A stretch of DNA of 64,000 nucleotides from Thermoplasmata archaeon (GTDB lineage Archaea > Thermoplasmatota > Thermoplasmata > GCA-020350865), in the NCBI GenBank assembly GCA_020348445.1, contig CP070751.1, positions 96,001 to 160,000 on the forward strand, written 5' to 3'. How positions within the stretch are numbered: position 1 is the first letter of the stretch; each line of letters starts with the position of its first letter. Position numbers and translations under genes: made by a program. Below the pieces are notes generated by a model, which worked only from the letters and a program-made list of their open reading frames with translations, was not told the origin of the DNA and ran no database searches. Shown here one piece after another: positions 54,800-58,461 of this stretch.

Positions 54800-55018
54800 A
54801 TGGCAGAAGAGAATCTAAGGGAGCTAGATATGAGAGTATATCAGTACATAAAGCTCAACGATTTCGAGACTAACAAATGGTCCACATCTGAGGCAGCTAA
54901 ATCTTTGGGTGTTGACGAGAGTGAGATATACGAATCGCTGGCCAATTTATCGAAGCACATGAAGGACAAGGTTTGGATATATTATAAGGACGGTGGGTTG
55001 AGGATCGCGGCGGAGTGA
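54800..55018 (+). CDS. Small winged-helix-like protein (72 aa)
   Basis: ORF track; WSTSEAAKSLGVDESEIYESLANL is HTH-like. It ends 6 nt before tRNA-iMet. Confidence 0.7.
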   Translation: MAEENLRELDMRVYQYIKLNDFETNKWSTSEAAKSLGVDESEIYESLANLSKHMKDKVWIYYKDGGLRIAAE

Positions 55019-55024
55019 TCTTGT

Positions 55025-55152
55025 AGCGGGGTGGGGTAGCCAGGAAATCCCGAGGCATCTACCATAACCTCTTCGTATCATGCCTTGAGGCCTGATATCC
55101 CGACGGGCTCATAACCCGTAGATCGATAGTTCAAATCTATCCCCCGCTACCA
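55025..55152 (+). tRNA. tRNA-iMet (CAT) with a 50-nt intron in the D-loop (55047-55096) and encoded CCA
   Basis: A1-U72 acceptor AGCGGGG/CCCCGCT; anticodon stem ACGGG/CCCGT with three G-C pairs; loop CTCATAA; T arm GATAG-TTCAAAT-CTATC; CCA end. Removing 55047-55096 gives a normal 78-nt archaeal initiator tRNA. Confidence 0.93.
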
Positions 55153-55271
55153 ATTATTTATTTCTTATAATCATCCTGTTTCTAATGAAATGTTGTTGGA
55201 AGACAAAATAATTTCTTAAACTTTGAAGGGATGAAAGGCAATTTTAAATCACCCATATTCTCCTTTCATCC

Positions 55272-58341: not shown

Positions 58342-58436
58342 GCTCCCGTAGTGTAGCCCGGCCAATCATTTTGGCCTCTCGCGGTCTTTTCGGCTGGAGA
58401 AAGCCAAGGACACGGGTTCAAATCCCGTCGGGAGCA
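58342..58436 (+). tRNA. tRNA-Glu (CTC) with a canonical 20-nt intron at 37/38 (58382-58401); CCA not encoded
   Basis: Acceptor GCTCCCG/CGGGAGC; anticodon stem TTGGC/GCCAA; T arm ACGGG-TTCAAAT-CCCGT; strict BHB with central helix CTCT/GGAG and bulges CGC and AAA. Confidence 0.95.
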
Positions 58437-58461
58437 CTTATATTTAATTTTGATTTGATAC

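Follow-up and report, generated by a model that had tools for sequence, protein, structure and literature searches.

According to Fujishima et al. (2011; PMC3239211), splicing endonucleases (EndA) of the alpha4 and alpha2 architectures require a strict hBHBh' motif, and according to Kaneta et al. (2018; PMC5829648), relaxed motifs are cut efficiently only by those (alpha-beta)2 and epsilon2 enzymes that bear a loop. Both the alpha'2 enzyme of Archaeoglobus fulgidus and the loop-less EndA of Methanopyrus kandleri poorly removed the HBh' intron found at position 20b/21 of M. kandleri tRNA-Glu (PMC5829648). However, BHL-like motifs are considered cleavable by homodimeric enzymes by Tocchini-Valentini and Tocchini-Valentini (PMC8707768), and, as this contrasts with the two former sources, the published position on alpha'2 enzymes is not uniform.

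The locus described here is an archaeal initiator tRNA-Met (iMet) gene of an uncultured Thermoplasmata archaeon (genome G000), located at positions 55025-55152 of the window, that is, the whole 64,000-nt stretch of DNA that was analyzed. Its interest lies in a mismatch between enzyme and substrate: an essential, apparently single-copy tRNA needs the removal of an HBh' intron, while the sole detectable EndA is of a type reported to act on strict motifs and has none of the loops connected with broad specificity. The intron can serve as a test case for the co-evolution of EndA architecture and intron motif, involving one protein and one transcript, and the same arrangement of enzyme and intron recurs in four Thermoplasmata families.

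The gene and all its parts discussed below are on the plus strand. Exon 1 (55025-55046) contains the acceptor 5' strand, the D-stem 5' strand, and the D-loop up to A20a; it is identical to positions 1-22 of the intron-free orthologues and is invariant in the alignment of five congeners. The 50-nt intron of the HBh' class (55047-55096) occupies the D-loop site 20a/21, the insert being placed between A20a and A21 by the Rfam alignment, and is missing from the congener G004 and from most Thermoplasmata orthologues. Exon 2 (55097-55149) comprises A21, the D-stem 3' strand, the anticodon arm (anticodon CAU, GGG/CCC stem), the T arm, the acceptor 3' strand, and A73, and is followed by an encoded CCA (55150-55152). 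The terminal pair A1:U72 is present (A at 55025, U72 at 55148), with A73 next to it, and the anticodon arm reads ACGGG CUCAUAA CCCGU, including the CAU anticodon and three consecutive G:C pairs, 29-31:39-41.

In silico splicing of this gene, with the cut made after the second base of each bulge, yields a 75-nt tRNA plus CCA with the predicted junction ..CCAGGAA^AUCCCGAC.. (core GGAA^AUCCC). The product is identical in 75 of 75 positions to the uninterrupted gene of G004, which scores 60.8 bits against the Rfam tRNA model, aligned over the full model. Given the spliced sequence, ARAGORN reported tRNA-Met(CAU), the cloverleaf being complete once the insert was removed. An earlier note on this DNA had described an iMet gene with a 50-nt D-loop intron and had claimed that cutting after the second bulge base would give a normal iMet; all the features it named were found where it had placed them, and the spliced product agrees with the second claim. 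The unspliced gene is not called by ARAGORN with default settings and is miscalled as tRNA-Gly(ACC) when introns are allowed. It is also missed by Rfam at the gathering threshold, the E-value mode giving a partial match of 28.7 bits, which is below the threshold. In such genomes the initiator and about a dozen further tRNAs escape the standard finders, which distorts the tRNA counts of these MAGs.

The central 4-bp helix H, present in the MFE fold, is formed by the D-loop bases CAGG (55041-55044; C17, A17a, G18, and G19) and the intron sequence CCUG (CCTG in the DNA; 55091-55094). The 5' cut is predicted between 55046 and 55047, within a clean 3-nt AAA bulge (55045-55047) closed by the intron hairpin h' (55048-55090), in which 55048-55058 are paired with 55080-55090 with one C.A mismatch. 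This junction is fixed by the intron-free genes, a cut register moved by one base giving an identical product. The 3' cut is predicted between 55096 and 55097, within the trinucleotide AUA (55095-55097), which is not a bulge: it lies opposite A14-G15-C16 in a 3x3 internal loop, between helix H and the D-stem. Since C16 faces U74, no exon-side helix is formed (H=4, h=0, h' of at least 2), the 3' cut site falls in an internal loop, and the motif belongs to the HBh' (BHL-like) class. The strict hBHBh' class is defined by an exon-side helix of at least 2 bp at the 3' bulge. A strict BHB reached through alternative pairing was considered and rejected, as no register puts an exon-side pair beside the 3' bulge. 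Hence the relaxed, BHL-type motif with a non-strict outer side, as read in the earlier note, is confirmed and can be assigned to HBh'.

The splice motif exceeds chance: of 200,000 trials with shuffled introns, 0.29% produced all four central pairs together with an in-register flanking helix. According to fold energies, which are predictions only, the MFE fold (-50.1 kcal/mol) has the D-stem extended over the 3' cut site, which is thereby buried, and the BHB-type fold is less favourable by 4-7 kcal/mol (-46.0 kcal/mol with the helix forced and both bulges unpaired, -42.8 kcal/mol in a hand-built model). Reading of the intron sequence for a C/D-box guide RNA revealed no C box, and the sole CUGA belongs to the splice motif.

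The order to which this genome belongs was sampled by six species-level genomes. Within the genus, the iMet site holds introns of 50 nt in G000, 48 nt in G001, 48 nt in G002, and 30 nt, of largely different sequence, in G003, and none in G004. Across the five congeners the iMet exons are invariant while the intron varies in sequence and length, and the upstream region is conserved and syntenic. The iMet gene of G002 (L010, G002:C3) has two introns, the D-loop one and another of ~46 nt at 37/38. In the same genome a perfect 31-nt copy of the 3' part of iMet is found on another contig (G002:C166:3817-3847) and looks like an att-type duplication.

The survey of the class used an even sample of 201 genomes, a D-loop interruption being scored when the BLAST match started at position 20 or 21. 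The iMet D-loop site was interrupted in at least 23 of ~173 Thermoplasmata genomes with a match, representing four families; both counts exclude genome G097 and are lower bounds. Thirteen orthologous introns from four families were inspected base by base. Their lengths are 28-50 nt and their interiors are unrelated in sequence. In all 13 an AAA 5' bulge and an intron helix, built of different sequences, occur at the equivalent place and the class is HBh'; the exon-side helix is present in none (h = 0, with C16 or U16 facing U22). The central helix has four of four pairs in 12 introns and three of four in the remaining one. Moreover, three introns, those of both f21 genomes and of G062 from family f23, show the compensatory replacement of CAGG/CCUG by UAGG/CCUA (C17-G to U17-A). 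The retention of the motif, with compensatory change, across the 13 introns indicates that selection maintains it, and this conservation is the strongest available evidence for splicing of the iMet intron.

In L033 (G036:C117, 1372-1500), a complete iMet gene that has an intron at 37/38 is immediately preceded by a truncated iMet copy. The copy comprises exon 1, ~77 nt inserted into the D-loop at the site discussed here, the D-stem 3' strand, and the anticodon arm, and ends just past the anticodon loop; it may have been left behind by a tandem duplication or an integration.

The G000 intron opens with the same seven bases, AUCCCGA (55047-55053), as exon 2 (55097-55103), and it also has an internal inverted repeat. 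This would be expected of a MITE-like element that had entered the D-loop with a 7-bp target duplication and was tolerated because it is excisable. We give this explanation very little credence, as no other copy of the intron was found in the genome by blastn-short, and the seven-base repeat, already imperfect in G001 and G002, is lacking in G003 and in the other families, where an intron still occupies the same site. The seven-base repeat may instead mirror the origin of the intron or an alternative fold, since the intron start could pair as a substitute for the D-stem 3' strand.

The existence of another initiator gene has to be considered in view of the state of the assembly. The "single contig" of 5.16 Mb is made up of 353 pieces with 100-N spacers between them, and these pieces form two series that differ in their order; the description of G000 as a complete 5.16-Mb single contig was therefore rejected. 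The genome is thus a MAG of possibly inflated size, with a completeness of 82% and a contamination of 3.8%, some of it bacterial. Such an assembly could lack a further EndA subunit or another iMet gene.

If the interrupted copy were disrupted and non-functional, being a pseudogene or an insertion scar, another, intron-free initiator would have to serve. The incompleteness of the MAG leaves room for such a gene, and a CAU tRNA that has no intron and has GGG/CCC in its anticodon stem is indeed encoded outside the window, at G000:C1:2412747-2412823 (L043). However, in this tRNA C1 is unpaired with position 72 and the pair A11:U24 is present, which we take to be hallmarks of bacterial tRNA-fMet. 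The gene lies at the very edge of a piece of 9.2 kb, with 3 nt beyond it, and a sigma-54 activator (enhancer-binding protein) is encoded on the same piece; no orthologue of the tRNA was found in the congeners. It was accordingly rejected as a second initiator and assigned to a bacterial contaminant. The earlier note had named a second intron-free iMet as the observation that would speak against its reading; a search for one in G000 yielded this bacterial contaminant and no archaeal candidate. Nor was any other archaeal-type iMet found in G001 or G003, where the interrupted gene is the sole iMet found. Together with the perfect conservation of the iMet exons and the retention of the motif in 13 genomes of four families, this makes a non-functional iMet highly improbable.

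A 72-aa ORF (54800-55018, plus strand), conserved in the congeners with codon-like third-position variation, ends 6 nt before iMet, and an AT-rich, TATA-like stretch (~54977-54989) lies inside its 3' end. As the ORF is conserved and varies in a codon-like manner, either the iMet promoter is inside it or the ORF and the tRNA are co-transcribed; the TATA-like stretch is a candidate promoter, from which iMet transcription would possibly start. On the other side, ~80 nt 3' of the tRNA, there is a 10-bp inverted repeat, GGATGAAAGG ... CCTTTCATCC (55231-55271, plus strand), with no copy of the tRNA tail.

The iMet intron is not the only one of its kind in the genome. In a motif-free census, compact tRNAs of a class relative, G028, were spliced-aligned to G000, and each spliced product was checked by ARAGORN. 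D-loop introns were found in at least seven tRNA genes, iMet, Arg(CCG), Arg(UCG), Lys(UUU), Val(UAC), Val(CAC), and Leu(UAG), and T-loop introns (~59/60) also in at least seven, elongator Met, Glu(UUC), Gly(CCC), Arg(GCG), Arg(CCG), Val(CAC), and Lys(UUU). The D-loop introns of iMet, Arg(CCG), Arg(UCG), and Lys(UUU) were classified as HBh' by script and that of Val(CAC) by hand. The automated BHB classifier failed on the D-loop introns of Val(UAC), Val(CAC), and Leu(UAG), because the boundaries from the spliced alignment were off by more than 4 nt, and the two Val genes were read manually; by this manual reading, the Val(UAC) intron may have a weak 2-bp h. The T-loop introns resolved by the classifier, a set that does not include the Lys(UUU) one, are hBHBh' or hBH, the T-stem acting as h.

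Two tRNA genes have three introns each (D-loop, 37/38, and T-loop), tRNA-Lys(UUU) (G000:C1:4095243-4095475), about two thirds of which is made up of introns, and tRNA-Arg(CCG) (679350-679500). A strict intron is also present in the window itself: tRNA-Glu(CUC) (58342-58437, plus strand) has an hBHBh' intron at 37/38 with H=4, h=7, and h'=4, which is in line with the strict canonical intron ascribed to it in the earlier note. Elsewhere in the genome (G000:C1:4640570-4643566), ~25 tRNA genes are packed in 3 kb; several of them have unusual sequences, introns are predicted in some by ARAGORN, and the array may be of viral, mobile-element, or contaminant origin.

Given the many D- and T-loop introns of G000, the iMet intron does not stand alone. 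As a BHB-type tRNA intron at a non-canonical site that is already on record, it represents a known kind, and one common in the lineage. The earlier note had named membership in a lineage where such introns are routine as an observation that would refute its reading, and in the genomic sense they are routine, D- and T-loop introns being common in this genome and the iMet site being occupied in four families. A limited literature search revealed no published description of multi-intron tRNA genes or non-canonical tRNA introns in Thermoplasmata.

A single EndA gene was identified in G000, encoding a 362-aa ORF (G000:C1:548043-549128, minus strand). Each of the domains PF01974 and PF02778 matches this ORF twice, in the order N-C-N-C, and neither has a match elsewhere in the MAG. 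The tandem repeats are 33% identical to each other. The Tyr/His/Lys catalytic triad, at the Y/H/K positions of the M. jannaschii enzyme, is complete only in the C-terminal repeat, the N-terminal one having Phe for the catalytic Tyr and Lys for His. The catalytic repeat aligns without gaps to M. jannaschii 1A79, and gaps appear exactly at the CSL/ASL inserts of A. pernix 3P1Z_B, S. tokodaii 2CV8, and ARMAN-2 4FZ2, as well as at the Tyr-His insert of the ARMAN-2 protein; by alignment, none of the specificity loops CSL/L1, ASL/L2, and L3 is present. The best PDB match is an engineered beta-alpha fusion of M. kandleri EndA (5X89, E = 5e-39). From its sequence the enzyme is of the alpha'2 (two-repeat) type, lacking L1, L2, and L3, and is predicted to assemble as a homodimer. 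RtcB is also present in the genome.

The four congeners have the same single EndA gene (77-84% identity), split over two contigs in G004. In total, the five genus genomes and most of 40 class relatives yielded one EndA homologue apiece, the second matches that were inspected being fragments of the same gene. A lineage-specific insertion in EndA was sought and rejected, since no indel sets the genus apart from 29 other Thermoplasmata EndAs. The earlier note had expected an (alpha-beta)2 or epsilon2 endonuclease, which is not supported by this sole EndA of the two-repeat type with no specificity loops. Separate alpha and beta genes or a three-unit gene, in combination with a lysine-bearing loop inserted in the catalytic unit, are the marks of a broad-specificity EndA, whether (alpha-beta)2 with CSL/L1, epsilon2 with ASL/L2, or alpha4 with L3, and the gene found here has a different organization. 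The predicted broad specificity is still implied functionally, but it is not provided by any known architecture.

Taken together, these data suggest, with good confidence, that 55025-55152 is a functional and apparently the only archaeal iMet gene of this genome, the precursor of which would be spliced by the alpha'2 EndA and RtcB. In the most likely pathway, a homodimer of the single two-repeat EndA would cut both iMet sites, and RtcB would then join the exons, giving a normal D-loop and a 75-nt tRNA with the encoded CCA. Two ways in which the enzyme could cope with the 3' site may be proposed. First, the alpha'2 EndA of this lineage could be intrinsically more tolerant than that of A. fulgidus. 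Second, and more speculatively, the folded tRNA body (the D-stem, with A14 and G15 in tertiary pairs) could stand in for the missing helix h.

It is also conceivable that the intron is real and the loop-embedded 3' site is handled by something else, such as an extra EndA subunit missing from the assembly, a cofactor, or another nuclease. The poor in vitro performance of an alpha'2 enzyme on the M. kandleri counterpart of this substrate (PMC5829648) would fit such a helper. Every genome of the order is an incomplete MAG, which also leaves space for a missing subunit; however, the recurrence of a single EndA homologue, with no lineage-specific insertion, in the genus genomes and in most of the class relatives argues against it. 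We know of no alternative enzyme for BHB-type introns, and this was likewise counted against an additional factor, which we regard as unlikely. We lean, with some reservation, towards the view that the loop-less alpha'2 EndA routinely removes HBh' and hBH introns from D- and T-loops, including that of the sole iMet, in several uncultured Thermoplasmata lineages. If so, these archaea would represent a broad natural exception to the accepted co-evolution of relaxed or non-canonical tRNA introns with (alpha-beta)2 or epsilon2 enzymes or with loop insertions, and the structural features behind substrate tolerance would have to be others, residing in the enzyme or in the folded tRNA body.

Compared with the known systems, the 362-aa protein matches the alpha'2 EndAs of A. 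fulgidus and Thermoplasma acidophilum (1R0V, 2GJW, and 2OHC), which likewise have a degenerate N-terminal and a catalytic C-terminal repeat. Unlike these solved enzymes, which are shorter (289-305 aa), it has an N-terminal repeat of full length, and its implied in vivo substrates include relaxed motifs. On the side of the introns, the likeness is to Thermoproteales, Nanoarchaeota, and ARMAN (PMC3239211; Hirata et al., 2012, PMC3488258), which also have BHB-type introns in the D-loop and at 59/60, up to three per gene, of the HBh' and hBH classes. However, the EndA of those groups is an (alpha-beta)2 or epsilon2 enzyme with a lysine-bearing loop, whereas the one found here is alpha'2 and has no such loop. 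The closest parallel is the 20b/21 intron of M. kandleri pre-tRNA-Glu(UUC) (PMC5829648), also from the euryarchaeal side, directly 5' of position 21, and of the HBh' class, in a host whose EndA also has no CSL, ASL, or L3 loops. The two cases differ in the host tRNA, which is the initiator tRNA-Met here and tRNA-Glu in M. kandleri, and in the enzyme, which is a fused two-repeat alpha'2 protein here and a loop-less (alpha-beta)2 heterotetramer there. Finally, M. kandleri has a single relaxed intron, whereas the intron described here is one of many in D- and T-loops and recurs in four families.
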